From: Croceivirga thetidis
GTDB lineage: Bacteria > Bacteroidota > Bacteroidia > Flavobacteriales > Flavobacteriaceae
DNA: 64,000 nt
Direction of reading: 5' to 3'
NCBI RefSeq assembly: GCF_012272815.1
Contig: NZ_JAAWWL010000001.1
Span: forward strand, 1,301,146 to 1,365,145
In this document: one piece after another, positions 32,739 to 63,265 of the stretch
Layout of the letters: every line of letters starts with the position of its first letter
Numbering within the stretch: position 1 is the stretch's first letter
Notes under the pieces: model-generated
What the model saw: the letters and a program-made list of their open reading frames with translations, nothing else
Databases searched by the model: none
What the model was told of the DNA's origin: nothing
Program-made: the position numbers and the translations under genes

Positions 32739-32767
32739 AGACGGCGGATTTTTCCGCCGTTTTTTTA
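32739..32767. terminator. bidirectional terminator between flotillin (+) and gpsA (-)
   Basis: ACGGCGGA (32741-32748), TTTTT loop, CCGCCGT (32754-32760), then TTTTTT. On the minus strand it follows the gpsA stop. Confidence 0.75.
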
Positions 32768-33766
32768 ACCAGGTTCTGACTCTGAACCGCTTTCTAATTT
32801 TAAAAGCCCTCTGAATGCATCATGAACCGTATTGTCTTCATAAAGCACTTTATAAACCTCTTCTGAAATGGGCATATGAACGTTGTAGTCTTGTGCCAAT
32901 TCCATAACAACTTTAGCAGTTTTCACCCCTTCGGCAACTTCTGACATTTCTTCTATTATCTCATCCAGTTTTTTCCCTTTTCCCAATTGAAAGCCTACAT
33001 GTCGGTTTCGACTTTTGGTACTACTACAGGTCGCAACCAAATCACCCATGCCGGCAAGACCAGCGAAGGTTCTTCGCCGACCACCCATTGCCGTGCCCAA
33101 TCTTGTAAGCTCTGAAAGTCCACGTGTAATAAGAGCTGCTCGAGTATTATCTCCAGCGTTTGCACCATCACCCATTCCTGTAGCAATGGCCATAATGTTC
33201 TTTAACGCACCACCGAGTTCACATCCAATAACATCATTATTCGTGTAAACCCGAAATAGACCTGAATTGAAAACGCCTTGTAGTTTTTTGCCAATCACTT
33301 CATCAACCATGGCAATCACGGCTGCAGCCGCTTGACCATTGTGAATTTCCTTGGCTAGATTTGGACCGGTTAGAACGCCTGTTGGATGCCCAGGTAGGAT
33401 TTCTTCGATAACTTCGGTCATCCTTTTTTTGGTACCCATTTCTAATCCCTTTGAAAGGCTTACAATTGGTATCCAGGGTCTAATATGGGCTTTTGCTGTT
33501 TCCAATACTGTTCTGAAATTTTGTGATGGAATGCCCATTACCAAAACATCAGAATTTTTAACGGTTTCTTCTATTGAAGCTGAGGCTTTAAGATTTTTGT
33601 TAAGGAGTGCTCCCGGAAGGTATTTTGAATTGGTGCGATGTTCGTTGATTTCATTAACGGTATTTTCGTTTCGTGCCCAAATAGTAGTATTTGCATTCCG
33701 GGCAGTTAAGGAGGCAACTGTGGTTCCCCAAGATCCTCCTCCCAACAATCCAACATTTAATGGCAT
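32765..33766 (-). CDS. gpsA: NAD(P)H-dependent glycerol-3-phosphate dehydrogenase
   Basis: VGLLGGGSWGTT Rossmann motif, GpsA-like length. The ORF-track start at 33781 is TTG; the ATG at 33766 (MPLNVGLLGGGSWG) is the likely start. Confidence 0.85.
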   Translation of the reverse strand: MPLNVGLLGGGSWGTTVASLTARNANTTIWARNENTVNEINEHRTNSKYLPGALLNKNLKASASIEETVKNSDVLVMGIPSQNFRTVLETAKAHIRPWIPIVSLSKGLEMGTKKRMTEVIEEILPGHPTGVLTGPNLAKEIHNGQAAAAVIAMVDEVIGKKLQGVFNSGLFRVYTNNDVIGCELGGALKNIMAIATGMGDGANAGDNTRAALITRGLSELTRLGTAMGGRRRTFAGLAGMGDLVATCSSTKSRNRHVGFQLGKGKKLDEIIEEMSEVAEGVKTAKVVMELAQDYNVHMPISEEVYKVLYEDNTVHDAFRGLLKLESGSESEPG

Positions 33767-33808
33767 AGGCAATGGTTTCAAAGTGGATTGCTTGAGAAGG
33801 CAATCCTA

Positions 33809-36800
33809 TTAGTTATTCAGTTCAGCTACGAACAGGTCCCTTACCTGTTCTACGTATTTATCCAAATCTTTCAATTTCCATAGTCCAGTATCCACGGGTT
33901 CCAAAACGACAACTTCTATATGGGTAGGACGTAATAATTTGGCACCTTTCGGCATAGCCTGGTATGCATTTTTGATAACTATTGGAATGATTGGAACTCC
34001 AGCTTGTATGGCCAAATGAAATGCACCTTTTTTGAACTTGCCCAGCTCTGCTGTACCACTTCTTGTACCTTCAGGGGCAATAGCGACTGAAATCCCACTT
34101 TTTAAGGCATCCACTGCTGGTTTCATGGCCTCTATAGCCTTGGCTTTGTTACTTCTGTCTATATAGATAGCACCTAGGGCCTTAAATATTGGACCAATTG
34201 GGCTTTTCTCCAATTCCTTTTTAGCTACACCTGTAAAATCATTACGGAGCAACTTCATCACAATAAAAAAGTCTGCTGCACTTTGATGGTTAAAGCAAAA
34301 AACAGCTGGACGAAAATCGGTCAGGTAGCGTTTTCCCCGAACTGAAATCTGCAACCCAGCAAGTCTGGTACCCAAATCCCCAATGGTTGCAAAGGTAGTA
34401 TTGGCAGCTTCTTGTCTTGACATTGTAGTCAAGCCTTTAATTGCTCCCCTTACCGCTGAAGGATAGATGCTAGCGACCGCCAAGCCCGTACGAAGACCGT
34501 TCACCACAGATTTTTCTTGTGGTTCTTCAAATCTTAGAATTGGCCAATCGTTTTCAAAAGCAACTTGTGACAAGGCGTTATCTGGATTTACGGCAACGGG
34601 CTTTCCTACTATCTTGAATAAGGGATAATCATCAAAGCTGTCCGAGTAAAAATAACTTTTAGAAAGGTCAATATCGTTATCTCGAGCAAATGAACGGGCT
34701 GCTTTGGCCTTACCTTCACCCCAACACATTTCTTCGATTCGACCCGTGAACTTCCCGTTTTGCAGCTCCATTCTGGTGCAGTATATATCAGATATACCCA
34801 GCTCTTTGGCTATCGGCGCAACTTGATACGCGGTGGCAGCCGAAACGATTACCACGCGGTGCCCTTTTTCTAAATGTTTTTCAATCAGTTTTCTTGACTC
34901 AGGATAAATGGTTGCGGCTAAAAACTCGTCATAGACATCCTGCCCTACATCGTAGAATACCTTTTCTGGAATTCCCTTGACCCCTAGGGCTGCAATTTTG
35001 GTTAATACCTCAAAATCTCGATTTCCAAATGAATACACCAGCGCTGTAATAAACTGTGTGATGTATTCTTTTGGGGTGGTTTCACCGCTAAATAATCTTG
35101 TTCGTACAAATCGTTTGGCAGAAAAGTCGTTAATCAGTGTACGGTCCAAATCAAAATAAGCAGCGATATGATTTCCTTCCTCTTCTTCAAGTGTTTCTTT
35201 TTTCGAATGTATTGTAGAAGCTTGCGGAACCAATAATTTCTTACTGGATATCAAGTCCATGCTTTTTTCGCTTGGTTCTACCTCAAATTCATTGAGGTAG
35301 GTGAGTCTGGTGGTAAGGTCTTCAAGTTGAACCATCCACTCTTCAAGACCTTTTTGGTTTATATGCTGTTGTTTTAGTCCAAGACCTGCATTTTCGGCAA
35401 AACGATAAGCGTTCTGCAAGAATGGTTTTGAAACGCTATCCAATCTTGTGATTCTACTTTGCCAATGCAGTTCTTTTCCTTTGAACATGCAAAGCTCCAG
35501 GAAATCATCTTCCGAATATGGGTCTTCATTGTCCCAATTGAGTAGGGTATAGCAAACAACTTTGTAAGCATCTAAATAAGACAGGAGCAGTGCCCTTGAA
35601 ATGAACAAGTGCTGTTTTTTAAGTATTTCAGAAATATCCCTTGAGGAATCACTTAGGATATCGCGCCAATCTTTATGAAACCGAAATAGTTCCTCTTCAA
35701 TTTCTTCACTGAATTTTGCCTTATTAGTATAGAAAAATTCGAATTTAAATAGATTTCTGAGGTTCATGATTTCCTCCCAGAAATGAACAATTCTGTTGTC
35801 TGAAGTATCATCCTTGATTTTAGCCAAGGCCATCTCTACAAAAGCTGAATGATACAAATGCCCCGCGGTCATATTTGCATAATAAGTAGCAGGAAGGTAT
35901 TCTGATGAAACAATGCTGTACTGTGCTTTTTGACCGGCCCTGCTTTTTTGTAGAATATTTGCCCCTTGTAGCAGATTTAAAGCTTTTTGGACGCTTACAG
36001 CTATAGGGAAACCCCTATCCATCAAGGCGTTTTCTTGTTTTTTACCGATGTACTCCATTAACCGCTTCACCTTGAATTCGATTTCCTTTTTGGTCAAGGC
36101 AAAATCATTCAATAAAACCGTACATATTAGCGAAACAGTTGATACTGGTGTTATTCTTGACATTCTGGTGATTACATCAAATGCAAAAAAGGGCAGTGTA
36201 TTTTTATTTGCATAGCTGTCTTCACTTAATTGAGGTACGGTAACATTGTGTGTTTCATCAATTTCAACGGGGTCGCCAAACCGTATTGCAGCGCGGCCAT
36301 AATCACTGCCAAGACTTCGAACATATTTAACACCTTCAGCTAGGTTTTCAGATTTCTTTTTGGCGCCACGACCTTGTTGGGTCATTTCTTTAACATCAGG
36401 GATGAGGTCGTAAACAATGGAAACCGGCACATATTTTATGGCCCTTGAACTCTGTTTTTCGGCGTCCATTATGTATTTGAGAATACCCATTTGCGGATGC
36501 AGAATCTTACCGGTTCTAGAACGGGTACCTTCAATATTCCATGTAAGGTGATCGCCTTTATCGATGATGGTCGAAATGTAATGCCTAAGCGTTACTTTGT
36601 AAACAGGATTATCTTTAAAACTTCGCCTTATAAATACGATACCTGCACTTTTCCCTAATTGTTTCATACCAGGGAAAGCCAAATTGATTCCACCAAAAGA
36701 ATAGGGAACGGGCATACCGTATCGGGCCAATGTTGCTATCAAAACCAAGGTGTCTAAGTAGGTCTTGTGCGTCATGATGAATGCAACGGAATTCAACCGC

Positions 36801-37051
36801 ATTAACTTCATCAATTTTTTTATCCCCTTTGGGTCAACATCTATTTTTTCGCTGTAAGCACGAGATAGGATGTAATCGAAGCCTTTGACCGATACCATTT
36901 TGGCAATAGGATGTTGCTCGGCATATAGTTCTCTGATATACTCTGTGGCTTCTTTTTGGACTTCTTTGAAATCGAGCTTATGTTCTTTGGCGGTTTGCCT
37001 TAAGACTTCTTGAAATTTTTCATTCTTTATGATATTGTCCATACTGCCCAA
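33809..37051 (-). CDS. tri-domain fusion: PlsB-type glycerol-3-phosphate acyltransferase + HAD-IB phosphatase + PlsC-type lysophosphatidate acyltransferase
   Basis: N-terminal domain has PlsB blocks I-IV: AFIMTHKTYLDTLVL (HxxxxD), GIVFIRRSF, WNIEGTRSRTGKIL, KYVPVSIVYD. The middle domain has HAD motifs: YFDLDRTLI (DxDxT), VVIVSAAT, a conserved Lys region, SDSFDD. The C-terminal domain has PlsC blocks: FCFNHQSAADFFI, AIYIDRSN, IAPEGTRS, VPIIPIVI. 1080 aa. The track start at 37051 is TTG; an ATG at 37042 is the likely start. Confidence 0.85.
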   Translation of the reverse strand: MGSMDNIIKNEKFQEVLRQTAKEHKLDFKEVQKEATEYIRELYAEQHPIAKMVSVKGFDYILSRAYSEKIDVDPKGIKKLMKLMRLNSVAFIMTHKTYLDTLVLIATLARYGMPVPYSFGGINLAFPGMKQLGKSAGIVFIRRSFKDNPVYKVTLRHYISTIIDKGDHLTWNIEGTRSRTGKILHPQMGILKYIMDAEKQSSRAIKYVPVSIVYDLIPDVKEMTQQGRGAKKKSENLAEGVKYVRSLGSDYGRAAIRFGDPVEIDETHNVTVPQLSEDSYANKNTLPFFAFDVITRMSRITPVSTVSLICTVLLNDFALTKKEIEFKVKRLMEYIGKKQENALMDRGFPIAVSVQKALNLLQGANILQKSRAGQKAQYSIVSSEYLPATYYANMTAGHLYHSAFVEMALAKIKDDTSDNRIVHFWEEIMNLRNLFKFEFFYTNKAKFSEEIEEELFRFHKDWRDILSDSSRDISEILKKQHLFISRALLLSYLDAYKVVCYTLLNWDNEDPYSEDDFLELCMFKGKELHWQSRITRLDSVSKPFLQNAYRFAENAGLGLKQQHINQKGLEEWMVQLEDLTTRLTYLNEFEVEPSEKSMDLISSKKLLVPQASTIHSKKETLEEEEGNHIAAYFDLDRTLINDFSAKRFVRTRLFSGETTPKEYITQFITALVYSFGNRDFEVLTKIAALGVKGIPEKVFYDVGQDVYDEFLAATIYPESRKLIEKHLEKGHRVVIVSAATAYQVAPIAKELGISDIYCTRMELQNGKFTGRIEEMCWGEGKAKAARSFARDNDIDLSKSYFYSDSFDDYPLFKIVGKPVAVNPDNALSQVAFENDWPILRFEEPQEKSVVNGLRTGLAVASIYPSAVRGAIKGLTTMSRQEAANTTFATIGDLGTRLAGLQISVRGKRYLTDFRPAVFCFNHQSAADFFIVMKLLRNDFTGVAKKELEKSPIGPIFKALGAIYIDRSNKAKAIEAMKPAVDALKSGISVAIAPEGTRSGTAELGKFKKGAFHLAIQAGVPIIPIVIKNAYQAMPKGAKLLRPTHIEVVVLEPVDTGLWKLKDLDKYVEQVRDLFVAELNN

Positions 37052-37063
37052 AACCGTTAACTC

Positions 37064-38254
37064 CTAATTTAAGAAAAACAAACTTCTCTTTTTCTTGTTC
37101 CAGTAAAAAGGATAGAGAAAGCGTTCTATGAAAGTTGTAGTGTCTTCAACGGTCCTACCTTCAATGTTGGCTTGCAAGGCATTTGCCGTAATCAATAGCA
37201 CACTGACATTTGCGCCTAATCCTGAATGACTACCATAAACTTCAATGTTGGCAATATCTTTTCTGAAACTTTCTGCTTCCATACAATGTTTCCAAGGCAA
37301 AAGACCGTCGGTTTTTGTATAAATACAGGTTATAGGAACATTGGGTATTGGGTCCAATTCTTCTAAAAAACGCTTGTTTCGCTCTTTTAATGATTTACCC
37401 CTAAAGAATTCAAGAACACCATTCACAGGGGTCTTCATGTCCATAACTCCCCAAACAGGTGAACCAATGGTCACAATTTGCTCAACCATATCAGGATGTC
37501 GGTTGGCCATAATTTTAGCGAAAAGACCACCGCCACTCCAACCCACTATATTGACTTTTTGCCCACGGGTACGAAAAATATCTTCTAGTTTTTCTTCTAG
37601 CCTTGGTATATAATGAGATTTGATCAGGTTGACACCTTGATCCCATTTGTAGGTTTTGAAACCCAAAGAAGTCAAATAGCGACGCACAAATGAGGTTGAA
37701 TAATCATCTCCTAAATAGGGCGGAATCAAAAGAACTGGCCTGCCATCTCCTTTAATTCGTTTTGGTATAAAGGGATAAAATGCATAAATCGATGTCCATT
37801 CTACCAAAGACCTTCCTTCCAATAGCATATTGAAAAGTGGTGGCTTGGGAATCTTTAAATTGATTTGAGCAATTTGACGCTTGAAACTTTCCAGAACATT
37901 TTTGGTGAGTTCAGTTGTTTTCGGATCACTTTTTTCGACAAGATCCTCAACGACATGTTCAAGTATGTTTATCAAGGTATAGTACTCACGGCTCGGCCCA
38001 AGTTCGTCGCAGATTCGTATACATTTTTGAAATGAGGAATTAATATCACTTTCATTATCGAGAGTTAACTTCTTGATAAGAGGAAGTAAATCTTCAGAAT
38101 CTTGATGGTCTTTAAAGTGTTTTGAAAATATTCGTTTCAAGTCTCGAACCGCAAGTTTGTTCTTTTTGCCCAAATGGGTAATGAACTCGATAAAAGCTTC
38201 GTATAAATGCAAATAGTCGTTCATGGTTTGTGGGGGATATGCTTGTTTAGCCAT
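37064..38254 (-). CDS. lipase-like alpha/beta-hydrolase with N-terminal helical domain
   Basis: The C-terminal half carries a nucleophile elbow VNIVGWSGGGLF, a candidate Asp (TKTDGLLPW) and a candidate His (GSHSGLG). An alternative ATG at 38224 would give an ATGA overlap with the upstream gene stop. Confidence 0.55.
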   Translation of the reverse strand: MAKQAYPPQTMNDYLHLYEAFIEFITHLGKKNKLAVRDLKRIFSKHFKDHQDSEDLLPLIKKLTLDNESDINSSFQKCIRICDELGPSREYYTLINILEHVVEDLVEKSDPKTTELTKNVLESFKRQIAQINLKIPKPPLFNMLLEGRSLVEWTSIYAFYPFIPKRIKGDGRPVLLIPPYLGDDYSTSFVRRYLTSLGFKTYKWDQGVNLIKSHYIPRLEEKLEDIFRTRGQKVNIVGWSGGGLFAKIMANRHPDMVEQIVTIGSPVWGVMDMKTPVNGVLEFFRGKSLKERNKRFLEELDPIPNVPITCIYTKTDGLLPWKHCMEAESFRKDIANIEVYGSHSGLGANVSVLLITANALQANIEGRTVEDTTTFIERFLYPFYWNKKKRSLFFLN

Positions 38255-39162
38255 GTAATGATATCTTCTTCGACCTCTTCGCTGTTTATTTCGTTAAGCA
38301 TTTCATGTCGGCCTCCTTTGTAGAGATTGAAAGTCAGTTCATTGTTGCCATTTTCTCTATAATTTTTGGCAACTTTAGTGACCCCCTTGCCCATTTCTCC
38401 AACGGGATCCTCATCTCCTGAAAATATCAGTATAGGGAGGTCATCAGGGGTACTTATAAAGGCTTCAGGTTTATTCAATTGTCGCGAATTGGTCAATATG
38501 TCTGCAAAAACGCCAATTGAAAAATTTTCTATTCGATAAGGGTCGGCTTCAAAAATATCAACTGCAGTTTCATCACTACTTATCCAATCAAGTTTGGTTC
38601 TATTGGGTTTGAATTTTTTATTGAATTCATCAAAAAAGAATGCCCTTAAGGTTTCGTTGCTTCGTTCCCTACCTCTGAAAGCACTAACAAGTTTTGTGCT
38701 TGCCAGCCCAAAATGACCGAGTCCTTTTATAAAATTTGCGGTTCCTGATAAAATAAGAGCGTCAATATCCGAGCCGTGTTCTAGTACATATTTACGACTT
38801 AGCAAAGATCCCATGCTATGCCCAAATAGAATAAACTTCGTGTTAGGGTGTTCCTGGCACATCAATGTAGTCAAAGAATGCATATCTGCAACAGCATCCC
38901 CAAAATAATCGTCGCCATCATAATAACCGAACAATCGTTTTATTTCGGCAGTTTTTCCATGGGCGCGATGGTCGTTCGCATACACAGTAAAACCTTCTTT
39001 TTGTAAGCGATTTGCTATGGTTTCATACCTGCCCGCATGTTCACCTATACCATGTGCAATTTGAATAACACCTCTAAGAACAGTCCCTTCTGCTGCCTCC
39101 CATTTATAGTAGCAGATGACTTCCCCATCCTTGGCGGTAAATGTATTTGTTTTGTAAGGCAT
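38221..39162 (-). CDS. alpha/beta hydrolase, lysophospholipase / monoacylglycerol-lipase family
   Basis: HGIGEHAGRY and GHSMGS motifs typical of the Hydrolase_4 / lysophospholipase L2 / MGL family. 313 aa. ATG confirmed. Confidence 0.7.
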   Translation of the reverse strand: MPYKTNTFTAKDGEVICYYKWEAAEGTVLRGVIQIAHGIGEHAGRYETIANRLQKEGFTVYANDHRAHGKTAEIKRLFGYYDGDDYFGDAVADMHSLTTLMCQEHPNTKFILFGHSMGSLLSRKYVLEHGSDIDALILSGTANFIKGLGHFGLASTKLVSAFRGRERSNETLRAFFFDEFNKKFKPNRTKLDWISSDETAVDIFEADPYRIENFSIGVFADILTNSRQLNKPEAFISTPDDLPILIFSGDEDPVGEMGKGVTKVAKNYRENGNNELTFNLYKGGRHEMLNEINSEEVEEDIITWLNKHIPHKP

Positions 39163-39164
39163 CT

Positions 39165-41003
39165 TTATCTGCTTAAAAAGGCTTTGATGAGGTTACTAAA
39201 CTTTCGCTTATCGGCAACAGTTCCTGAAAGTTTAAGGCGCTGTTGAATTTTAAGCTCGTCGAAAAGAAATTTTTTCTTGTAAAGTGCGTAGAGATTTTCA
39301 TCCTCAATTTCCATGAGCATTTTTGGATCTAGTGCTGTTGTCTTTTTAATTGAAATAGGTTCTTTAGTCAAGTCAATTTCCCAACATTCGCTACTTTCTC
39401 CCATATCAACCCCAATATGATATAGGCCTTTATATTTTTTTACGAGAGCGGTTTCTTTCTTGAGGTATCTTTTTAATGCGTTGAAAAATACGGTGCTCTC
39501 ACTCTTTTTCTTAGCCTCTTTTGCAGGTGTTTTTTTCTTATCCCTTGCTAAGATTAATTTTTCCAATTCATTTGCTGACTCTCGAATGTATCTGGAGAAC
39601 AAATAGGCATCTGGCATTGTCTTCGCATCAGATGTCGGTGTAATACTTATATTGCCGTTATAGCTAAAAGCCGCGATAATCAGTCCAAAACCATTGACCA
39701 CCGGAGTCAACGGAAACATAGCTACCACTTTATGGCCGTTGAGGTACAACGTATTTTTTGGTCCAGGCACATTGGTGATGGTGACATTAAAAGGTGGCCT
39801 GTGTAGGTCTTTAATATTGTACTTGCTGTAGATACGTGCCGCTAAATTGGCCAAGCCGAATGGAACCGCATCTGCCATTTTTACCAAGGTTTTTGCACCC
39901 ATAGTTTTATGCCTTGCTTTACCAAGCATTGTCTGTTCTTGTATATATTCCAGACGTTCCAATGGTTCTTCAATATGCGTGGCCAGCTGAATCATCATAT
40001 TGGCTATTTGGTTGTTATGCGAAGTATCGTTTTCGGCGCGTATTGAAATCGGAACATTAGCGACCAATGGCTGCATTGGTAATTTTTCTTTTTCAAGTAG
40101 ATATCTGCGCAAAGCTCCGGCACAAATGGCAAGCACAACATCATTAATACTACCACCAGCCAGTTTTCGTAGACCATTCACCCTATCAAAAGACAGAATT
40201 GCGGTGCCCCAAGTTCTTTTTGGCGAAATATTTCCATTAAAAATGGTATTTGGCACAGGATATCTTGCCGTTGCAAATTCCTTTTGGATACTTAGCGTTT
40301 TAGAAGCTCTTGTTTTGACAAGCGCAATTGCGGTGTTGGCAACGGATTTGGGTAGTTTTAGGGGGTTTTTAAAAAAACCGTAGCTACTTTTTAGTAGCAA
40401 ACTCAAGTCGTCAGGCAGCGGATCTGGTTGAAATTTTTTGATTTTTGATTTGTCGATGGGCTTTACTTTATCATCTTTCTCAAACAAAGTTCCTAAAAGA
40501 CCTACGCCTGAACTTCCATCAATCATTACATGATGAACTTTACTTACAATGGCAACAGAGCCTTTGGGCACTTGTGGGATTTCGTCAATACCCTCAATAA
40601 AATGAATTGACCAAAGGGGTCTTCTCAAATCGAGGGGAGCACTGAAAATTCGTGAGGTTGTTCTACGCAAAGACTCCCAATTTGAGGGATCTGCCAACTT
40701 CATGCGGTTGAGATGAAGATCTAATTCAAAATTTGGATCATCAACCCAATATGGATAATCCAAATCCATGGGAACACGCATTAAACGCTGTCTAAATTTT
40801 GGCATTAAATGTAGCTTCGAAGCAACAATTTTTTTGAAGTCCTTGAAATTAAGTGAACCTTCAACAACCAATAGCGTGGCAATATGCATCGGACTTGTGG
40901 GAGACTCGGCATAAAGAAAGGTTGCATCGGTACCTGAGACTTGTTCGTATTTGCCTTCCAACACCTCTTGTGCAATATCTTTAAAATCAATTTTTGATGC
41001 CAT
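39165..41003 (-). CDS. wax ester synthase / acyl-CoA:diacylglycerol acyltransferase (WS/DGAT) fused to C-terminal SCP2-like lipid-binding domain
   Basis: HHVMIDGSSG (HHxxxDG catalytic motif), the ATFLYAES...PMHIATLL N-terminal block, PKFRQRL, PYWVDD, LDLRRPLWSIHFIEG. The last roughly 130 aa (GLYHIGVDMGESSECWEIDLTKEP...KLSG) match an SCP2 sterol-carrier fold pattern. 612 aa versus about 460 aa for a typical WS/DGAT. Confidence 0.85.
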   Translation of the reverse strand: MASKIDFKDIAQEVLEGKYEQVSGTDATFLYAESPTSPMHIATLLVVEGSLNFKDFKKIVASKLHLMPKFRQRLMRVPMDLDYPYWVDDPNFELDLHLNRMKLADPSNWESLRRTTSRIFSAPLDLRRPLWSIHFIEGIDEIPQVPKGSVAIVSKVHHVMIDGSSGVGLLGTLFEKDDKVKPIDKSKIKKFQPDPLPDDLSLLLKSSYGFFKNPLKLPKSVANTAIALVKTRASKTLSIQKEFATARYPVPNTIFNGNISPKRTWGTAILSFDRVNGLRKLAGGSINDVVLAICAGALRRYLLEKEKLPMQPLVANVPISIRAENDTSHNNQIANMMIQLATHIEEPLERLEYIQEQTMLGKARHKTMGAKTLVKMADAVPFGLANLAARIYSKYNIKDLHRPPFNVTITNVPGPKNTLYLNGHKVVAMFPLTPVVNGFGLIIAAFSYNGNISITPTSDAKTMPDAYLFSRYIRESANELEKLILARDKKKTPAKEAKKKSESTVFFNALKRYLKKETALVKKYKGLYHIGVDMGESSECWEIDLTKEPISIKKTTALDPKMLMEIEDENLYALYKKKFLFDELKIQQRLKLSGTVADKRKFSNLIKAFLSR

Positions 41004-41015
41004 TGGTCAGTTGTT

Positions 41016-42353
41016 TTATGCTACTCGCGAACGGTTCTTTTTTTGTAAGCTAGTATAATTATTGATGCCTATATTTTCTGCTTTGAGTTCAAACATTAAA
41101 CTAAATAGGCCAAAAAATGTTCTATTTAGATAAATAATGTGTCTTGAACCCCTATTGGCGTTCATTTTTCTAACATTTGAAGACTTCATGTAATGCTCAC
41201 CTAAAGCTGAAATTCTTTCGAATAATGATTGGTCTGAAAAGTCGAAAGTTTCGCTTTGAAAAGGTTGTGTAAAACATTCAAGTACCTCGTAGAACATTTT
41301 GGTAAAAAACTCAAGTTCTTCTTCAGAATCTTCAGTCTTCAACACTTCAAGGGCCAAAAGATTTTTTCGAAAACTCTTTTCGTTATTTATAACATCTGCT
41401 TTAAAAAGTTCGAAATACGGCGTATAAAATTCATTTGGAATTTCTTTCATACAACCAAAATCAAGTGCAATCACCTCGTTTTTATCCGAAACAAGAAAAT
41501 TTCCAGGGTGAGGATCTGCATGAACTTTGCGCAATTCATGCAATTGGTACATGTAAAAATCCCAAAGTGTTTGGCCAACTTTGTTCGAAGCCTTTTGGTC
41601 AGTATTTGATTTAATAAATTCAGAAAGATGCTTACCATTCATCCAATCCATTGTAATAATGTCAGAAGAAGAGTATTCAGGGTAGTACTTAGGAAATCTC
41701 AAATTTGGAATATGTTGACATGAACTTGCGACCTCTTGGCTTTGTTTTAGCTCCAAGACATAATCCGTTTCTTCTACAAGCTTGTTTTCAACTTCCTTGA
41801 AATATTTCTCTGAATGTTCTCCCTTGATGTTGAACATTTTCATAGCAACAGGTTTCACAATTGCTAAATCGGATTGAATACTTTCGGCTACACCAGGGTA
41901 TTGGATTTTTACGGCAAGGGTCTTACCATTTTTTTCAGCTTGATGTACCTGTCCAATACTTGCAGCATTAATTGCTTCATTACCAAATTTGTCGAATAAT
42001 TGGTTTGGATACTTACCGAATGATTTTCTGAAGGTTTTGAGAACCAAAGGAGCAGAAAGCGGAGGAACTGAAAATTGGGAAAGGGAAAATTTCTCTACAA
42101 AAGCCTTGGGCATAATGTTCTTTTCCATGCTCATCATTTGTGCCATTTTCAGGGCACTTCCCTTCAATGTTTTTAAACTATCATAGATATCGTTCGCGTT
42201 GTTTTCATCAAGACGTTCCTTAGCCTTCTCTTCAGAATTGACCATCTTGTCGCCATAATATTTCAAATAATTTACACCAACTTTAGCACCCGTTTTTACT
42301 AGTTTGGAAGTGCGTTGCAGCTTTGAAATCGGTATTTTTTTCGATGTCTTCAT
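41016..42353 (-). CDS. ABC1/UbiB (AarF) atypical protein kinase family protein
   Basis: AASIGQVHQAEKNGKTLAVKIQYPGV and ADPHPGNF are ABC1-kinase signatures. 445 aa. ATGA overlap with the upstream TetR-like gene. Confidence 0.8.
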   Translation of the reverse strand: MKTSKKIPISKLQRTSKLVKTGAKVGVNYLKYYGDKMVNSEEKAKERLDENNANDIYDSLKTLKGSALKMAQMMSMEKNIMPKAFVEKFSLSQFSVPPLSAPLVLKTFRKSFGKYPNQLFDKFGNEAINAASIGQVHQAEKNGKTLAVKIQYPGVAESIQSDLAIVKPVAMKMFNIKGEHSEKYFKEVENKLVEETDYVLELKQSQEVASSCQHIPNLRFPKYYPEYSSSDIITMDWMNGKHLSEFIKSNTDQKASNKVGQTLWDFYMYQLHELRKVHADPHPGNFLVSDKNEVIALDFGCMKEIPNEFYTPYFELFKADVINNEKSFRKNLLALEVLKTEDSEEELEFFTKMFYEVLECFTQPFQSETFDFSDQSLFERISALGEHYMKSSNVRKMNANRGSRHIIYLNRTFFGLFSLMFELKAENIGINNYTSLQKKNRSRVA

Positions 42354-43012
42354 TCGTTTTCTTTCGACTTTATTTTTTCGGCATACAAAAATTTACCGAG
42401 GTCAATGATATTATGTAATGATTTGGTATTCAATAGCTCTAAAGCAGTATTTACTGACTTTTCAATGAAAATATCTGTTTTTTCGCACCGTTGTGAATCG
42501 TCCGACATCCAGAATTTGATGGTCAATAAGAACTGGACCCAAAAGCCTTCTTTAATTGACTTTTTTTGAAATGATTCCAGACTACTGGTAAGATTGAGCG
42601 GTTCCATCGCCAATGAATCGACGAATCCATCAAAACTTTGCTTTAATTCGCTGAATAGCGATATTGTACCTAAGCTTAAACCATAATCTTTTAAGGTGAT
42701 TAAGATGAATTCTCGATTTAAGGTCAGGTTTTCAAAAAAAGTATAATACAGGCTGAGCAGTTTGTCCTTTTTGTCAAAGGAAGGATATTCAGAACTTTCA
42801 GCAAGGGTAGCAATCGAAACATCAAAAAGCGTTCTGAAAATCGCCTTGTCCAATTCTTCAAAATCCTTATAATGTTCATGAAAAGAATTGGCATCAAAAT
42901 CATAGTGTTCACCCAAATTTTCTATTGAATCGGGTTTGCCCTGCAGTCTTACCACTGCATCCATATAAAAATCTATAAGATCTTCTTCTGTTATTTTCTG
43001 TTGATTTGCCAA
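42350..43012 (-). CDS. TetR/AcrR-like transcriptional regulator (divergent HTH)
   Basis: TEEDLIDFYMDAVVRLQGKPDSIENLGEHYDFDANSFHEHYKDFEEL aligns position-by-position with the TetR consensus HTH (TRERILEAALELFAERGY..TSMRDIAEAAGVSKGALYHHFPSKEAL). TTG start at 43012. Confidence 0.5.
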   Translation of the reverse strand: MANQQKITEEDLIDFYMDAVVRLQGKPDSIENLGEHYDFDANSFHEHYKDFEELDKAIFRTLFDVSIATLAESSEYPSFDKKDKLLSLYYTFFENLTLNREFILITLKDYGLSLGTISLFSELKQSFDGFVDSLAMEPLNLTSSLESFQKKSIKEGFWVQFLLTIKFWMSDDSQRCEKTDIFIEKSVNTALELLNTKSLHNIIDLGKFLYAEKIKSKENE

Positions 43013-43108
43013 CCTAAGATGTGAACGTTTTCATAGCTTTTTCGGGAATGCCAAATGGAAATTGAGGTAAATCCGAAGCATAGCTAAATTAAGGAATTAT
43101 GCATGCAT

Positions 43109-43145
43109 AAAAAAACCAGTTAGTCTCATTGAGATTAACTGGTTT
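43109..43145 (-). terminator. rho-independent terminator of the phasin-like operon (minus strand)
   Basis: AACCAGTTAGTCTCA / TGAGATTAACTGGTT near-perfect inverted repeat (43116-43145). On the minus strand it is followed by TTTTTTT (plus-strand A-run 43109-43115). It sits just downstream of the 43177 stop. Confidence 0.7.
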
Positions 43146-43176
43146 CAGTAACTAAACTTAAATAACTAACGAAATA

Positions 43177-43464
43177 CTAAGCTACCAGTTTTTTGAATCT
43201 CTTCTGACCCTCTTTGAAATCACCTTTGATTTCGTTTAAGATATCAAAAACCAATTCTTGTTGTTTGGCCGCCAATTTCAATCCTCCTTTTACAGCTTTG
43301 TCAGCAACACCTTGCCACTGTTCTGTAATTTCAATTGATGTGGATACAAACTCTTCGGTTTTTGTTAGGGCAACTTGGTTTGCGTTAAGTGCCATATCCT
43401 TGGTCTTCTTTGCATAGTTTGCAAAAATTCCCTTCTTATTTTTATTTACTTTCTTATTTCCCAT
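43177..43464 (-). CDS. phasin-like small amphipathic protein (paralog 1)
   Basis: 95 aa, predicted all-helical and Lys-rich, with the KQQELVFDILNEIK motif shared with the two neighbouring paralogs. Confidence 0.5.
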   Translation of the reverse strand: MGNKKVNKNKKGIFANYAKKTKDMALNANQVALTKTEEFVSTSIEITEQWQGVADKAVKGGLKLAAKQQELVFDILNEIKGDFKEGQKRFKKLVA

Positions 43465-43502
43465 TACGGTTTGAATTAAGATTAGTCCCTATTTGAACTG
43501 AA

Positions 43503-44381
43503 TTATTTTTTGTTGTCAGCCAACCAAGCCGCTATAGCTTCAACTCCTGCCTCAGCTCCTAGTTCTGCTTGTTTTTTCAAGTCAGTAACGCTGGTATTTT
43601 TAAAAGTTGAACCCGCTTCATCAAGAATCGACTTGATTTTAGTTTCAGTTGCCTGTGCCAATTGCGCAAAAGTTTCGATACCATTCTCCTTGAAAATACG
43701 CTCAAGTTTAGGACCAACACCCTTAATAGCTTTAAGGTCATCTTTAATAACGGCCTTAACAGTGCTCTCAACCTTCGCCGCTTTTTGCTTTACCTCGGCT
43801 ACTTTCACAGAAGCTTTTTTAGAGGTTTTTGTAGCTTTAGCAGTAACTGTTTTCTTTGTTTTCCCAACATTTTTCTTTGTTTGCTTCAAGGCATCATCAA
43901 CCAAGTCTTCACCCTTGTCAATTACCTTTTTAGCCTGCTTAAGAGCGTCTTCCTTGACCTCATTAAATTTGGCTACGCCCTGATTTTTTAGGTTTTCAGC
44001 AGTTTTCTCAACCTTTTGAACGATTGGGTTTTCTATAACTTTCTCTTTAATGGTTTCAGAAACTTCCAATACCTTTTTACCTACAGGTGTTTTAGATACA
44101 TATTCAAAGGCACGCTCAATGGTGTCCTCATCATAACCAACCAAATCCATGGTCTTTTCTTTTCCTGTGTTGAACTGATTTTTTACTGTTGCTGCAGTTT
44201 CAAAAACCAAATCCATTTGTCTTTTACGTAATGGCTCGGTTTTTTTAACCATTTTCTTGGTCAATTCTTGCCATTTCTCACCATGCTCTATGGTCGTGTT
44301 AATTGTTGCCATTGTCACATTTATCAATGACTTATTCAAGCTTTCGCTTTTTTTAGTTCTGTTTTTTGTTGCTGTTGCCAT
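43503..44381 (-). CDS. phasin-like protein with Lys/Ala-rich linker and C-terminal helix-hairpin-helix domain (paralog 2)
   Basis: N-terminus shares KRQMDLVFETAATVK with the paralogs. The middle has KTKKTVTAKATKTSKKASVKVAEVKQKAAK (histone-H1-like). The C-terminus has DDLKAIKGVGPKLERIFKENGIETFAQLAQAT (HhH). Confidence 0.5.
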   Translation of the reverse strand: MATATKNRTKKSESLNKSLINVTMATINTTIEHGEKWQELTKKMVKKTEPLRKRQMDLVFETAATVKNQFNTGKEKTMDLVGYDEDTIERAFEYVSKTPVGKKVLEVSETIKEKVIENPIVQKVEKTAENLKNQGVAKFNEVKEDALKQAKKVIDKGEDLVDDALKQTKKNVGKTKKTVTAKATKTSKKASVKVAEVKQKAAKVESTVKAVIKDDLKAIKGVGPKLERIFKENGIETFAQLAQATETKIKSILDEAGSTFKNTSVTDLKKQAELGAEAGVEAIAAWLADNKK

Positions 44382-44425
44382 GATATATTTTGTTTAAATA
44401 CTGTTGTTCTTAATTAATTATGATG

Positions 44426-44461
44426 CAAATCTAATTTTGAGTAGTTACAAATGAGTTGCAA
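44426..44461 (-). promoter_or_regulatory. candidate SARP-box promoter: TTGCAAC-N4-TTGTAAC direct repeat (minus strand 44461-44443) plus TAGATTTG -7 box (44433-44426)
   Basis: Reverse complement of 44443-44461 is TTGCAACTCATTTGTAACT. Fourteen nt after its second TTG lies TAGATTTG, which matches the Bacteroidota TAnnTTTG -7 element. This is 45 nt upstream of the ATG at 44381. Confidence 0.5.
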
Positions 44462-44467
44462 TCGAAA

Positions 44468-44719
44468 CTAGTTCTTGACAATTCTCTTTTTGATACCGTA
44501 GAGGGCATCAAAAACAAGTTCTTGTTGGGCAGCAGTGATGTCCAATCCTTTTTTCACAACTTTTGAGGTCAAATCCAAAGATTTATAACCTAAGCCAATA
44601 GAAACATCGAATGCTTTTTCTGTTGTGGAAAGTGCAAAGTCGTTTGCTTTGTTTGCCAATCCAAGAGCGTTATCCGCTACTTTTTCTACAATGTTCTTTT
44701 TCGTTTTTTTAGTTGCCAT
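44468..44719 (-). CDS. phasin-like small amphipathic protein (paralog 3)
   Basis: 83 aa, with AAQQELVFDALYGIKK near the C-terminus matching paralog 1. ATG confirmed. Confidence 0.5.
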   Translation of the reverse strand: MATKKTKKNIVEKVADNALGLANKANDFALSTTEKAFDVSIGLGYKSLDLTSKVVKKGLDITAAQQELVFDALYGIKKRIVKN

Positions 44720-44756
44720 AACTATATATTTTTCTAATGTTTTCTATTTTATGGTG

Positions 44757-44792
44757 CAAACATAGAATCCCATAGTTACAAATGAGTTACAA
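44757..44792 (-). promoter_or_regulatory. candidate SARP-box promoter: TTGTAAC-N4-TTGTAAC direct repeat (minus strand 44792-44774) plus TATGTTTG -7 box (44764-44757)
   Basis: Reverse complement of 44774-44792 is TTGTAACTCATTTGTAACT. The repeat-to-TAnnTTTG spacing is identical to the 44426-44461 element. It is 38 nt upstream of the ATG at 44719. Confidence 0.5.
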
Positions 44793-44866
44793 GTCTGGTT
44801 GACTATTGATTTTGAATGAAGAAAGCTGCGAAGGAAATATCGATGTTTGGAATGGGAAGATGGGAA

Positions 44867-45673
44867 TCAAGCAATAGACTCAATCTTCTTGAGCAAATCC
44901 CGAGTTGCTGGTAGTGGTGTAATACCATACTCTTCTTCTAAAATATCAGCACATTTTTGATAAGTTTTTAATGCTTGCGGCCTATTTCCTTTTTGGATAT
45001 AAGCAGACATTTGAATTCGATAAGCATCTTCCCATGTTTTATCAATGGCAATTGCTTGTTGAGCAAGCCGTACACTTTCCATTGGGTTGGTGGCTATTAA
45101 TAACTCTGCCAAATTCACCAAGGCACCCAATATCAAAACCTGAATTTTCTCTCGCTCTTCTGACGACCAATCTTCAAAAATGCGATTTGGAAGATAAGAC
45201 CCTTGATGCAATGCAATGGCCATGTTGTAGGCTTCTGCTGCAATCTCAGGAAAATCACCCAAGGCTTGATTTCCAATGATGATGTATTTCTCAATGGCAT
45301 CAACATCGATCCAAACTAAATTTGAATTTAATTGATAAGTTACCCCCTGCCGTTCTACATAAATCGCTTCGGTTCTAGATGGTCGGTTTGGTTCCAAAAC
45401 TTTGTTGACCCCATGCAGCGCTACTTTAAAATCACGATCGTCACCATCTTCCCATAAGTGGTCCATGATGTGCTCCTTGTGTAACGCATGTTTGTTTCGA
45501 TAAGAAATAAGGTATTGAATTAATTGAAGGGTCTTGTCCCGACCCCATTCTTTTGCATTGACCTTTTCTCCATCACGCCAAAGCACAAATTGACCTAGCG
45601 TTTGGAATTTAATTGGAGCTTCATTCTGAAACTTTTTATGTTGCTCCAATTGATTTGTCAATGCTGCCTTCAA
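44867..45673 (-). CDS. SARP-family (OmpR-type winged helix + BTAD) transcriptional activator
   Basis: IKFQTLGQFVLWRDGEKV...DKTLQLIQYLISYRNKHALHKEHIMDHLWEDGDD is an OmpR/SARP-type DNA-binding domain. The C-terminus (VRLAQQAIAIDKTWEDAYRIQMSAYIQKGNRPQALKTYQKCADILEEEYGITPLPATRDLLKKI) is a classic BTAD. No in-frame ATG precedes the DNA-binding domain, so the start is TTG at 45673, 45661 or 45649. Confidence 0.7.
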   Translation of the reverse strand: MKAALTNQLEQHKKFQNEAPIKFQTLGQFVLWRDGEKVNAKEWGRDKTLQLIQYLISYRNKHALHKEHIMDHLWEDGDDRDFKVALHGVNKVLEPNRPSRTEAIYVERQGVTYQLNSNLVWIDVDAIEKYIIIGNQALGDFPEIAAEAYNMAIALHQGSYLPNRIFEDWSSEEREKIQVLILGALVNLAELLIATNPMESVRLAQQAIAIDKTWEDAYRIQMSAYIQKGNRPQALKTYQKCADILEEEYGITPLPATRDLLKKIESIA

Positions 45674-45685
45674 AATTTGAAATTT

Positions 45686-46237
45686 CTATTTGGTCGTAGA
45701 TGTTTTAGCCTTGGTAGTTCTTGAAGGCTTTTTGGTATTTGCTTGGTTCATAGCATCAACCTTTTTAGTGAGTTCCGCAACCGATTTTGTGAGTTTTGAA
45801 AGACTATCTTGCATTATCTTGAAATCTGATTTAGAAGCGTTACGCCATTGGTCGATAGGTACTTTTTCCATAAGTTCCTCACCATATTCGCTTAATTGCT
45901 CCTGCAAATTGGCAACCTGTTTTCTTGGGTCTTTTAAAGTCTCTTTGAGCATTTTTGGCCCTGTGGCTGCAACTGATTTAAAAAGCGAGAAACTCTTGGT
46001 CAAAATGTTTTCCTGTTCTTCAGAAGTACGGTCGGTCGTAGCTTCCATTGTTAAATCGGCCAAATGTTGTTGTATAAAATCTACGGCCTGTTTAAAATCA
46101 GAGAAGTTTAAATCTTCACCCCCTTGAACGTGTGAAACGTTACCACGCCATTGCACTTCAGATTCACCATTTTCGTCATAGATTTTTTGGGTGAACCGAA
46201 CCATAAATGAGGCGGTCTGTGCTGCTTTTTTTGCCAT
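45686..46237 (-). CDS. hypothetical helical protein (first gene of the minus-strand block)
   Basis: 183 aa, no recognisable domain, predicted helical with a Lys/Thr-rich tail. ATG confirmed. Lies 12 bp upstream of the SARP gene. Confidence 0.4.
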   Translation of the reverse strand: MAKKAAQTASFMVRFTQKIYDENGESEVQWRGNVSHVQGGEDLNFSDFKQAVDFIQQHLADLTMEATTDRTSEEQENILTKSFSLFKSVAATGPKMLKETLKDPRKQVANLQEQLSEYGEELMEKVPIDQWRNASKSDFKIMQDSLSKLTKSVAELTKKVDAMNQANTKKPSRTTKAKTSTTK

Positions 46238-46464
46238 TTTTTTCTGTTTTATATCGGGTTGGCTAACTATCTAAAAGTAACCATAATTCTTTTCGGTGAC
46301 ATTTTCTGATACTTAATCGGGGTTACCATCCTTTCTTTGACCAGTAGTTCAAGCAATAAAAATGGGGTATTGAAATACCGATTGAAGTACGAAATCCAAG
46401 CTGTTTTTGCATTTCATCGGAATTTGTACCTTGTTCGTCGATAGATACAGCAAAATTTTTAGAT

Positions 46465-47595
46465 TTGCGCACTATGGCCGAGACGAGACACGACTGGACA
46501 AAAGAAGAAATTCTTGCTATTTATAACAAACCCCTGATGGAATTGCTTTACGAAGCAGCAACAGTTCATCGGGAATACCATGACCCAAATACGGTTCAAG
46601 TCTCAACCTTACTCTCAATCAAGACGGGAGGTTGTCCTGAAGACTGCGGTTATTGTCCGCAAGCTGCGCGTTACCATACGGATATTGAAGGCAACGACTT
46701 GATGTCAGTTCAACAGGTTAAGGCCCAAGCATTGCGTGCAAAATCCGCTGGTAGTTCAAGGGTTTGTATGGGTGCAGCCTGGAGAAACGTCAAGGATGGT
46801 CCTGAATTTGACCAAGTTCTAGAGATGGTGCGAACCATCAATAAGTTGGATATGGAGGTTTGCTGTACTTTGGGTATGGTGACAGAGAACCAGGCAAAAC
46901 GACTAGCTGAAGCAGGTTTATACGCTTACAACCACAATCTTGACACTTCTGAGGAATATTATAAAGAAGTTATTTCTACTCGTGGCTATGAAGATCGTCT
47001 TCAAACCATTGAAAATGTTCGTAAAACCAACGTAACTGTATGTAGTGGTGGAATAATTGGTATGGGTGAATCTAGTGAGGACAGAGCTGGTATGCTCGTG
47101 GCTTTATCAACTTTGAATCCGCAACCAGAATCCGTTCCAATAAATGCTTTGGTAGCTGTTGAAGGTACGCCGATGGAAGAACAAAAACCAGTTGAGATTT
47201 GGGAAATGATTCGTATGGTTGCTACGACACGAATTGTAATGCCAAAGACCCAAGTAAGGCTTTCCGCTGGTAGGACTGAAATGAGCAGGGAAGGACAGGC
47301 AATGTGTTTCTTTGCCGGGGCCAATTCCATTTTTGCAGGTGATAAGTTATTGACCACCCCAAATCCGGATGTTAATCAGGATATGGAAATGTTCAAAATG
47401 CTAGGATTGAATCCTCAAAAAGCTTTTGTAAAGGCACCACAACCTAATACCGTGGAAGCTGAAGATTCTCAATTTCAATCTTTGGGTGAAAAACCAAGAT
47501 GGTCAAGGCCAGGACATTCTATAGGACAAAATGAGGCTGCTACCGAAAAAGGAAAAGCCAAGAAATTAATCGAAACCCCCATCGAGAATACATGA
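46465..47595 (+). CDS. bioB: biotin synthase with C-terminal low-complexity extension
   Basis: [10 protein letters not shown] radical-SAM cluster motif. [34 protein letters not shown] aligns with the BioB N-terminus, with a likely ATG at 46474. About 45 extra C-terminal residues. Confidence 0.85.
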
Positions 47596-62695: not shown

Positions 62696-63265
62696 ATGTA
62701 CGCAATTGTAGAGATGGCAGGGCAGCAGTTTAAAGTTGCAAAAGACCAGAAAGTGTACGTTCACCGTTTGCAGGAAGAAGAAGGAAAGAAAGTTGTTTTT
62801 GACAAAGTACTTCTTTTGGATGATAACGGAAGCGTAACTGTCGGCGCCCCAGTCATAGAAGGTGCGGCTATAGAAGCCAAAATCGTAAAGCACCTTAAAG
62901 GCGATAAAGTAATCGTTTTTAAAAAGAAAAGAAGAAAAGGATACCGCAAGAAAAACGGTCACAGACAGTCTTTAACGGAAATTGTGGTTGAAGGTATTGT
63001 TGCAAAAGGCGCCAAAAAAGCGGCACCAGCTAAGAAAACTGCAAAACCAGCAGCCAAAAAAGAAGAGTCTCCAGTAGCAAAAACTACTGCACCGAAAAAG
63101 GCTGCTCCAAAGAAAGAAGCTGCACCAAAAAAGGCTCCTGCAAAAGCAACCGAAGATTTAAGTAAAAAAACAGTTGCTGAGTTGAAAGAAATGGCTAAAG
63201 CCGCTGGTGTTACTGGTATTTCATCAATGAAGAAAGCGGAGCTTATAGAAGCTTTGAATAAATAA
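62696..63265 (+). CDS. rplU: 50S ribosomal protein L21 with Lys/Ala-rich C-terminal extension
   Basis: [25 protein letters not shown] core, followed by [17 protein letters not shown]... and a C-terminal [14 protein letters not shown]. Confidence 0.9.

Follow-up and report, generated by a model that had tools for sequence, protein, structure and literature searches.

A 292-aa protein of Croceivirga thetidis may well be a structural protein of the lipid-droplet surface that tethers droplets to the nucleoid; this reading, which draws on analogy with known granule proteins, is about an even call. Association of the protein with droplets is probable from the sequence comparisons given below. DNA is a somewhat favoured candidate, again by analogy, for the ligand of its C-terminal half. 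The gene lies in a stretch of 64,000 nt of contig NZ_JAAWWL010000001.1, which is the whole of the DNA analyzed and is referred to here as the window.

The protein is 100% identical to WP_168551678.1 of C. thetidis (Flavobacteriaceae), which is named "helix-hairpin-helix domain-containing protein" by NCBI and "DUF4332 domain-containing protein" in UniRef. Its N-terminus is MATATK, and the MAT-T start is kept in the homologs. The positions of the gene, its parts and its neighbors are shown in Table 1. Two peptides singled out in the first-pass annotation, KTKKTVTAKATKTSKKASVKVAEVKQKAAK and DDLKAIKGVGPKLERIFKENGIETFAQLAQAT, are located at residues 174–203 and 214–245, respectively. A whole-protein AlphaFold model has a pLDDT of 46 and serves as a secondary-structure estimate only; in it residues 1–213 are all predicted as helix with pLDDT below 50. 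Because this model is usable only for secondary structure, the C-terminal domain was re-predicted alone. Literature searches, among them one on DUF4332 and one on wax esters in the genera concerned, gave no description of the protein's family.

Table 1. Features of the 292-aa protein gene and of the surrounding cluster; coordinates are those of the window.
Feature	Coordinates	Strand	Basis
Gene for the 292-aa protein	43503..44381	(-)	stop codon 43503-43505; identical to WP_168551678.1
Residues 16-81, block common to two small paralogs; proposed droplet-binding part	44139..44336	(-)	alignment, BLASTP, amphipathic periodicity
Residues 82-165, further predicted helices, strongly amphipathic at 137-166	43887..44138	(-)	prediction, periodicity, weak apolipoprotein/phasin-type similarity
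Residues 166-210, Lys-rich linker	43752..43886	(-)	composition: 15 K in 45 residues, net +13
Residues 211-292, (HhH)2-type module (HHH_5 / DUF4332-like); proposed DNA-binding part	43506..43751	(-)	Pfam, alignment, predicted structure
95-aa paralog, shared block only; UniRef "Phasin family protein"; probable plain coat protein	43177..43464	(-)	
83-aa paralog, shared block only	44468..44719	(-)	
SARP/BTAD-type transcriptional regulator, conserved beside the coat genes	44867..45673	(-)	
Conserved 183-aa protein (p183), Lys/Thr-rich C-terminal end	45686..46237	(-)	
TetR_C_23-domain protein, weak COQ9-family match; 4-base overlap with the ABC1 gene	42350..43012	(-)	
ABC1/UbiB-type atypical kinase	41016..42353	(-)	
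WS/DGAT (wax ester synthase / diacylglycerol acyltransferase), C-terminal SCP2 domain	39165..41003	(-)	
Two alpha/beta-hydrolase (lipase/esterase-type) genes	37064..39162	(-)	
GPAT - HAD phosphatase - LPAAT fusion, 1080 aa, Kennedy-pathway steps in one polypeptide	33809..37051	(-)	
gpsA, NAD-dependent glycerol-3-phosphate dehydrogenase	32765..33781	(-)	

The N-terminal half begins with a block that is shared with two small neighboring ORFs. BLASTP comparison of the 292-aa protein with the 95-aa ORF gives an E value of 3e-8 and with the 83-aa ORF an E value of 5e-5, and the two small ORFs match one another at 4e-12. When a profile of the block was run across the window, no ORF beyond these three matched. 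Against a large database the same profile finds 136 relatives, all unnamed; those with a named source are Bacteroidota, and none of the 136 carries a Pfam domain. A search of the shared block on its own against Pfam gives no convincing family match, with Phasin_2 (PF09361) appearing in 2 of 22 sequences at E values of at least 0.029.

Helical (100 degree) hydrophobicity periodicity is strong in the family-averaged profile, both in the block (z 3.8, with none of 2000 shuffles equal to it) and in the helix at residues 137–166 (z 3.8). There are 40 of 148 18-residue windows with a muH above 0.4, compared with 8.4 +/- 7.7 in shuffled sequences. The Pfam Phasin family (PF05597) matches residues 38–94 of the 292-aa protein at 16.8 bits, which is under the gathering cut-off of 28.8, so the protein is not placed in that family; matches below or near the threshold are found in 15 of 21 homologs, the best at 1.6e-6. 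Weak matches to Apolipoprotein A1/A4/E, also below or near threshold, are present in 8 of the 21, and the ApoA-IV match to the 292-aa protein itself has an E value of 2.9e-4. The N-terminal half thus displays the sequence signature of a surface-active coat protein without membership in the phasin family, and it is from this that we infer droplet binding. The first-pass annotation had described a phasin-like shared N-terminal block. The shared block is borne out by both small ORFs, and the term phasin-like is weakly supported; the resemblance to phasins appears to be one of amphipathic-helix character and not of demonstrated homology. The sub-threshold similarity to true phasins weighs against a tether.

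The genes surrounding the 292-aa protein are in the order p183 - SARP - (83-aa) - 292-aa - 95-aa - TetR_C_23 - ABC1 - WS/DGAT - two hydrolases - GPAT/HAD/LPAAT - gpsA. The WS/DGAT has an intact HHxxxDG active-site motif, present as HHVMIDG. As judged from sequence, the triacylglycerol/wax-ester pathway is complete in this cluster, which also has structural and regulatory genes of its own. It is syntenic across Flavobacteriia, Cytophagia and Saprospiria, and the order is seen again, with some rearrangement or reduction, in Flagellimonas, a Flavobacteriaceae isolate, Dokdonia sinensis, Lacinutrix, Polaribacter, a Roseivirgaceae MAG and Saprospiraceae. A WS/DGAT and/or GPAT fusion gene is found within 10 kb of the homolog at 16 of 20 loci; three further loci are short contigs in which other cluster genes are retained. 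A distant homolog (L018) is situated outside any lipid cluster, with fabD, a sulfotransferase and a glycosyltransferase as neighbors, which counts against a tether, as does the putative status of droplets in Croceivirga. A metagenomic survey published in 2023 reported Bacteroidota WS/DGAT-SCP2 genes and the adjoining acyltransferase and did not report these small proteins (PMC10351704). The p183 gene adjoins the regulator wherever the available sequence reaches that far. It was considered as a fourth paralog and rejected, since it has no BLASTP similarity to the other three. A scan of positions 42900–46500 for sigma-70 promoters and intrinsic terminators, which does not model Bacteroidota promoters, gave counts at or below the shuffled expectation.

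In basicity the linker comes second among the 45-residue stretches of the 56 ORFs in the window that are 120 aa or longer. Lysine makes up 33% of it, against a background of 7.4%; T, V and A each contribute 16% and proline is absent. The length and charge of the linker vary from ortholog to ortholog. A Pfam search of the 292-aa protein finds no match to histone-H1-type families, and HC2 (PF07382) is matched by only one of 21 homologs. Homology of the tract to histone H1 was therefore rejected on two counts, the missing family match and the missing proline. The earlier description of a histone-H1-like Lys-rich tract is correct as to lysine content and holds for H1 in composition only.

The C-terminal domain scores 31.5 bits against Pfam HHH_5 (PF14520), above the gathering threshold of 27, and belongs to the HHH_5 / (HhH)2 fold. 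It falls outside DUF4332 (PF14229), with 18.5 bits against a threshold of 23.2; DUF4332 matches are seen in 6 of 21 homologs, the best at 4.7e-5. Seven residues (L216, I219, G221, G223, P224, K225 and G234) are invariant across the 21 aligned homologs, and the structure model of the domain alone has a pLDDT of 80.9. The HhH is retained at 17 of the 20 loci that carry a homolog. The canonical HhH motif that the first-pass annotation placed at the C-terminus is confirmed by these results, and its conservation in orthologs, which was offered there as a point on which the proposal could fail, largely holds. The net charge of the domain is zero, a property that weighs against a tether.

The closest known analogue, from sequence comparison, is PhaH, ahead of PhaM or MLDS. 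PhaH is a phasin of the PHB granules of Caulobacter crescentus. According to two papers (PMC13052382, PMC12678847) that refer to Salinas et al. 2023 (Mol Microbiol 120:307), its N-terminus is reported to bind granules and its HhH to bind DNA non-specifically, and its deletion is reported to leave the PHB granules disorganized. Residues 208–292 taken alone match positions 169–209 of the 234-position PhaH model (NCBIfam NF045508) at 24.8 bits (E 2.1e-5), which places the domain among C-terminal HhH domains of the PhaH type. The full-length protein matches the model at positions 80–209 only, with 33.3 bits against a cut-off of 250, and the N-terminal 165 residues do not match it. There are no PHA genes among the annotated neighbors; WS/DGAT and Kennedy-pathway genes are there instead, as they are at 16 of the 20 related loci. 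The possibility that the protein is a true PhaH ortholog was rejected because of the lack of N-terminal similarity, the score far under the cut-off and the non-PHB context. The two proteins are similar in size and in plan, with an N-terminal storage-body part (proposed for the 292-aa protein), a basic or low-complexity linker and a C-terminal HhH. They differ in that PhaH belongs to Alphaproteobacteria and PHB granules, whereas the 292-aa protein is found in Bacteroidota in a WS/DGAT neutral-lipid context.

The same domain is present on many other proteins. The last 90 residues gave five matches in a word-indexed search, which was replaced by an exhaustive profile search; the latter yielded 17,920 cluster representatives at E values of 1e-3 or lower, many of them tandem arrays of up to 25 copies. 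The C-terminal part of the PhaH model is the module that is found, by sequence, at the C-terminus of alphaproteobacterial NuoE, L21 and S2. It is also present on the Urf1 proteins of photosynthetic core complexes (9wqv_a, E 4e-12; 8yy9_O, 2.5e-10). Other hosts are L27, RNA polymerase beta', NrfD-type membrane subunits, small membrane-anchored proteins, a RimK-family ligase and an alpha-amylase-family enzyme. The module has the pattern DDLKxIxGIGPK...G...W..QA over about 75 residues and is usually C-terminal, following a basic or Ala/Pro-rich linker. Thus NuoE, L21, S2 and Urf1 (protein-O and protein-3h of RC-LH1) share the same domain of about 75 residues with the 292-aa protein, but these hosts are respiratory, photosynthetic or ribosomal proteins. 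Two cryo-EM studies of core complexes found the HhH domain unresolved in their maps (PMC12079452, PMC13066640); the authors of one termed the function of the domain obscure (PMC12079452), and the other stated that the function of Urf1 proteins is unknown (PMC13066640). The presence of the module on proteins with no obvious link to DNA, among them NuoE, Urf1, the NrfD-type and small membrane-anchored proteins and the alpha-amylase-family enzyme, weighs against a tether.

These hosts bear on the main rival explanation, an unlikely one, in which the 292-aa protein coats droplets and the ligand of its C-terminal module is a protein partner or an anionic membrane surface and not DNA. Through such a module, droplets might be anchored at the cytoplasmic membrane or at membrane complexes, or enzymes might be brought to the droplet. 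The occurrence of the module on membrane complexes and the neutral charge of the domain are in keeping with this, as is the binding of protein by the (HhH)2 repeats of NusA. However, PhaH is the only member of the module with a reported activity, and that activity is DNA binding (PMC13052382). The fusions to RNA polymerase beta' and ribosomal proteins, and the replacement of the module by a basic tail described below, suit a polyanion as ligand better, and a specific partner would not persist over module hosts so diverse. A related explanation would make RNA or ribosomes the ligand of the module, with droplets coupled to translation or RNA sequestered. This is very improbable: the ribosomal-protein hosts fit a generic nucleic-acid or nucleoid anchor equally well, the PhaH data favor DNA, and no RNA-specific feature was seen.

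A droplet-to-nucleoid tether gains support from the variants found among orthologs. Three orthologs in the same synteny do not have the HhH, i.e., those of Lacinutrix himadriensis (286 aa), Oceanihabitans (283 aa) and a Roseivirgaceae MAG (202 aa). In its place they have Lys/Ala/Thr/Pro-rich C-terminal tails, 94, 91 and 34 residues long and with net charges of +29, +27 and +9, respectively; the tails of the Lacinutrix and Oceanihabitans orthologs are AKK/APK-rich. Two orthologs from Saprospirales/Saprospiraceae (L015 and L016) retain the HhH with a linker that is acidic or weakly basic. The C-terminal half therefore carries in every case at least one of two elements, an HhH or a strongly basic tail. 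By analogy, these are the two devices of the known granule tethers, the HhH in PhaH versus the basic tail in PhaF, PhaM and MLDS. Because the linkers of L015 and L016 are acidic or weakly basic, electrostatic DNA binding is not a family-wide property, and these linkers weigh against a tether.

TadA of Rhodococcus opacus has a Lys-rich, heparin-binding C-terminus and is reported to influence droplet size. The 292-aa protein could be a coat protein of this type, its basic C-terminal half setting droplet size or coalescence by charge and with no tether to the nucleoid. The basic linker and the tail-only orthologs, with charges of up to +29, are compatible with such a role, and the amphipathic front half would be the same as in a tether. 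Control of droplet size by charge would leave unexplained why, within the C-terminal half, conservation is highest in a folded HhH (17 of 20 loci) and why this HhH is kept beside an acidic linker in L015 and L016. It is considered rather improbable.

A second line of support comes from fusions to WS/DGAT enzymes. A 549-aa protein from a Chloroflexia MAG (L023) consists of WS_DGAT_cat, WS_DGAT_C and HHH_5. A 556-aa WS/DGAT from a metagenome contig (L084) is 50% identical to L023, and the module profile matches its C-terminus at an E value of 2.8e-11. Another WS/DGAT-family protein (L098; TIGR02946, 417 bits) carries a Lys/Ala/Pro-rich C-terminal extension of about 155 residues, and a further WS/DGAT (L100) has a shorter basic C-terminal tail. 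Through such fusions, as seen in the sequences, the module is physically joined to neutral-lipid synthesis in lineages that are unrelated. Together with tail replacement in the orthologs, the fusions support a tether role for the 292-aa protein.

The fusions also bear on another alternative, in which the protein is absent from droplets and acts as a nucleoid-associated or regulatory DNA binder co-expressed with the lipid cluster, for example one titrated by droplets like MLDSR or PhaR. An HhH with a basic linker would be enough for DNA binding, a SARP regulator adjoins the gene, and MLDSR is a precedent for droplet-linked regulators (PMC5504291). Yet HhH domains bind without sequence specificity, neither the 165-residue amphipathic half nor the block-only paralogs have DNA-binding features, and the direct WS/DGAT-HhH fusions indicate a link that is physical and not regulatory. 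A regulatory role of this kind is distinctly improbable.

Two other known systems resemble the tether proposed for the 292-aa protein. MLDS of Rhodococcus jostii RHA1 is a major lipid-droplet protein that ties droplets to genomic DNA by way of its Lys-rich C-terminus, and a K-to-E mutation abolishes this DNA binding (PMC5504291). When architectures are compared, the 292-aa protein matches MLDS in having a Lys-rich C-terminal region and linkage to a neutral-lipid cluster and an adjoining regulator, here the SARP, in an arrangement that is syntenic across Bacteroidota. The TAG droplets of MLDS are also the same kind of organelle as is presumed for the 292-aa protein. MLDS differs in that it has no HhH and binds DNA by the Lys-rich tail alone, its regulator is XRE-type and not SARP, and it belongs to another phylum. 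PhaF of Pseudomonas putida and PhaM of Ralstonia eutropha / Cupriavidus necator are nucleoid tethers with an N-terminal granule part and a C-terminal part that binds DNA non-specifically (PMC13052382). Their design is resembled by the tail-only Lacinutrix and Oceanihabitans orthologs. PhaF and PhaM have histone-H1-like Ala/Lys/Pro repeats and are on PHA granules, whereas the 292-aa protein has an HhH and a proline-free linker. By analogy, then, the protein resembles PhaH and MLDS in its proposed working and is a member of neither family; its N-terminal family is unrelated and Pfam-less. The first-pass annotation had likened the protein to PhaM and MLDS in its bipartite logic. That logic is upheld by the amphipathic front, the basic linker, the HhH and the conserved WS/DGAT / Kennedy-pathway cluster, with PhaH as the better precedent.

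In the mechanism proposed, the neighboring WS/DGAT pathway would produce droplets of neutral lipid (triacylglycerol/wax ester). The long amphipathic helices of residues 1–165 would lie on the phospholipid monolayer of the droplet, where the two block-only paralogs are probably plain coat proteins. The flexible Lys-rich linker and the (HhH)2 domain would project into the cytoplasm and bind DNA independently of sequence. From the parallels with PhaH and MLDS we infer both this DNA binding and the physiological role, in which droplets attached to the nucleoid would follow it in their spacing and inheritance and might shield it as well.

A wider interpretation is offered tentatively and is more doubtful than the tether itself. 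Marine Bacteroidota may have a dedicated, undescribed lipid-droplet organelle system in which the large coat paralog hitches droplets to the nucleoid, with "HhH module or H1-like basic tail" as an interchangeable and widely used bacterial address tag. If so, the parts of the system would include a Pfam-less coat family of three paralogs, an ABC1 kinase with a COQ9/TetR-like lipid-binding protein, and a SARP regulator. The address tag would park storage bodies, synthases (the WS/DGAT-HhH fusions) and large complexes on the chromosome. Precedents for storage bodies that are tethered to the nucleoid exist in PHB granules (PhaM, PhaF, PhaH) and in the lipid droplets of actinobacteria (MLDS). Organized neutral-lipid bodies have barely been studied in the abundant marine heterotrophic Bacteroidota, and no structural droplet protein described for Bacteroidota was found in the literature. 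The concrete candidates at the locus are the tether, its pair of small coat proteins, the kinase and the regulator, and the tether candidate comes with natural variants that have the HhH, the basic tail only, or an acidic linker with the HhH. The WS/DGAT-HhH and WS/DGAT-basic-tail fusions suggest that the principle of tethering reaches past one phylum, and they hint at a role for the very common HhH module on NuoE, Urf1 and ribosomal proteins.

The C-terminal part of the 292-aa window protein is a (HhH)2-type domain (residues 211–292, HHH_5 / DUF4332-like), referred to here as the HhH module. Three syntenic orthologs are without this module and end in Lys/Ala/Thr/Pro-rich tails that differ in length and net charge (see the table). 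The module is present in a distant homolog (locus L018), which lies outside any neutral-lipid cluster and has fabD, a sulfotransferase and a glycosyltransferase as neighbours; a 202-aa protein related to the small paralog comes after it.

The same HhH module is found at the C-terminus of two WS/DGAT enzymes, at loci L023 and L084. Two further WS/DGAT relatives display a long basic C-terminal tail and no HhH; membership in TIGR02946 is confirmed for the L098 protein, with 417 bits. The window's own WS/DGAT has a Lys-rich linker that sits between the WS_DGAT_C and SCP2 domains, and this linker ranks third among the most basic 45-residue stretches in the window's 56 ORFs of at least 120 aa. The top stretch in this ranking (+14) belongs to ribosomal protein L21, where the Rho_N domain is detected with 40.9 bits and a weak SAP match is also present. 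Alphaproteobacterial L21 has the same type of add-on, i.e., a basic linker plus a small nucleic-acid-binding domain, but the end domain differs from the Rho_N of the window L21.

A profile search shows the HhH module in 19–25 tandem copies in three proteins, P0054 (3033 aa), P0059 (3115 aa) and P0063 (2280 aa), and in 3–8 copies in many others. Three copies are fused to an RNA polymerase beta' (P0167). In Flavobacteriaceae (Winogradskyella, Algibacter) the module is joined to an NrfD-type polytopic membrane subunit (L033:8648-10390, L037 and L073), and in Meiothermus hypogaeus an alpha-amylase-family enzyme is followed by a basic Ser/Pro/Lys-rich linker and then the module (L028:7520-10354). 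The 510–526-aa carriers from Saprospiraceae / Phaeodactylibacter match no Pfam family; their N-terminal region is Trp/Gln-rich and their C-terminus is the HhH module.

Coordinates of features in the window and in related loci
Feature	Location	Strand	Remarks
ABC1/UbiB-type kinase and TetR_C_23 protein genes	window 41016-43012	-	4-base overlap
183-aa protein	window 45686-46237	-	Lys/Thr-rich C-terminal end
L21 with C-terminal extension	window 62696-63265	+	Lys/Ala/Pro-rich stretch, then Rho_N
Lys-rich linker of WS/DGAT, residues 482-526	window 39426-39560	-	14 K, net +12
Ortholog without HhH	L009:9953-10813		Lacinutrix himadriensis; 94-residue tail, net +29
Ortholog without HhH	L010:3615-4466		Oceanihabitans MAG; 91-residue tail, net +27
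Ortholog without HhH	L008:10001-10609		Roseivirgaceae MAG; 34-residue tail, net +9
Distant homolog with HhH	L018:9965-10714		28% identity
WS/DGAT with HhH module	L023:8603-10252		Chloroflexia MAG CAVOGX010000002.1; Pfam WS_DGAT_cat + WS_DGAT_C + HHH_5
WS/DGAT with HhH module	L084:1332-3002		metagenome contig MTKY01066421.1; module profile, E 2.8e-11
WS/DGAT relative, basic tail	L098:472-2346		metagenome contig; Lys/Ala/Pro-rich tail
WS/DGAT relative, basic tail	L100:994-2715		metagenome contig
510-526-aa HhH proteins	L026:8694-10238, L049:7128-8708, L050:8759-10291
Putative transposase ORF, 347 aa	L012:8347-9390	-	Polaribacter filamentus

In one Polaribacter filamentus strain the lipid cluster is split by an ORF that looks like a transposase, with the SARP regulator on one side of it and the coat genes on the other. 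In most related loci the 183-aa protein adjoins the SARP regulator, while four loci either lack it or have it out of range; this protein has no family match and no similarity to the three coat paralogs. The genes for the ABC1/UbiB-type kinase and the TetR_C_23 protein are kept together in the lipid cluster in most related loci. In the window's TetR_C_23 protein a TetR_N domain is not detectable, and there is a weak match to the COQ9 family. The pairing of the two is reminiscent of COQ8/COQ9 and of the ABC1 kinases of plastoglobules.
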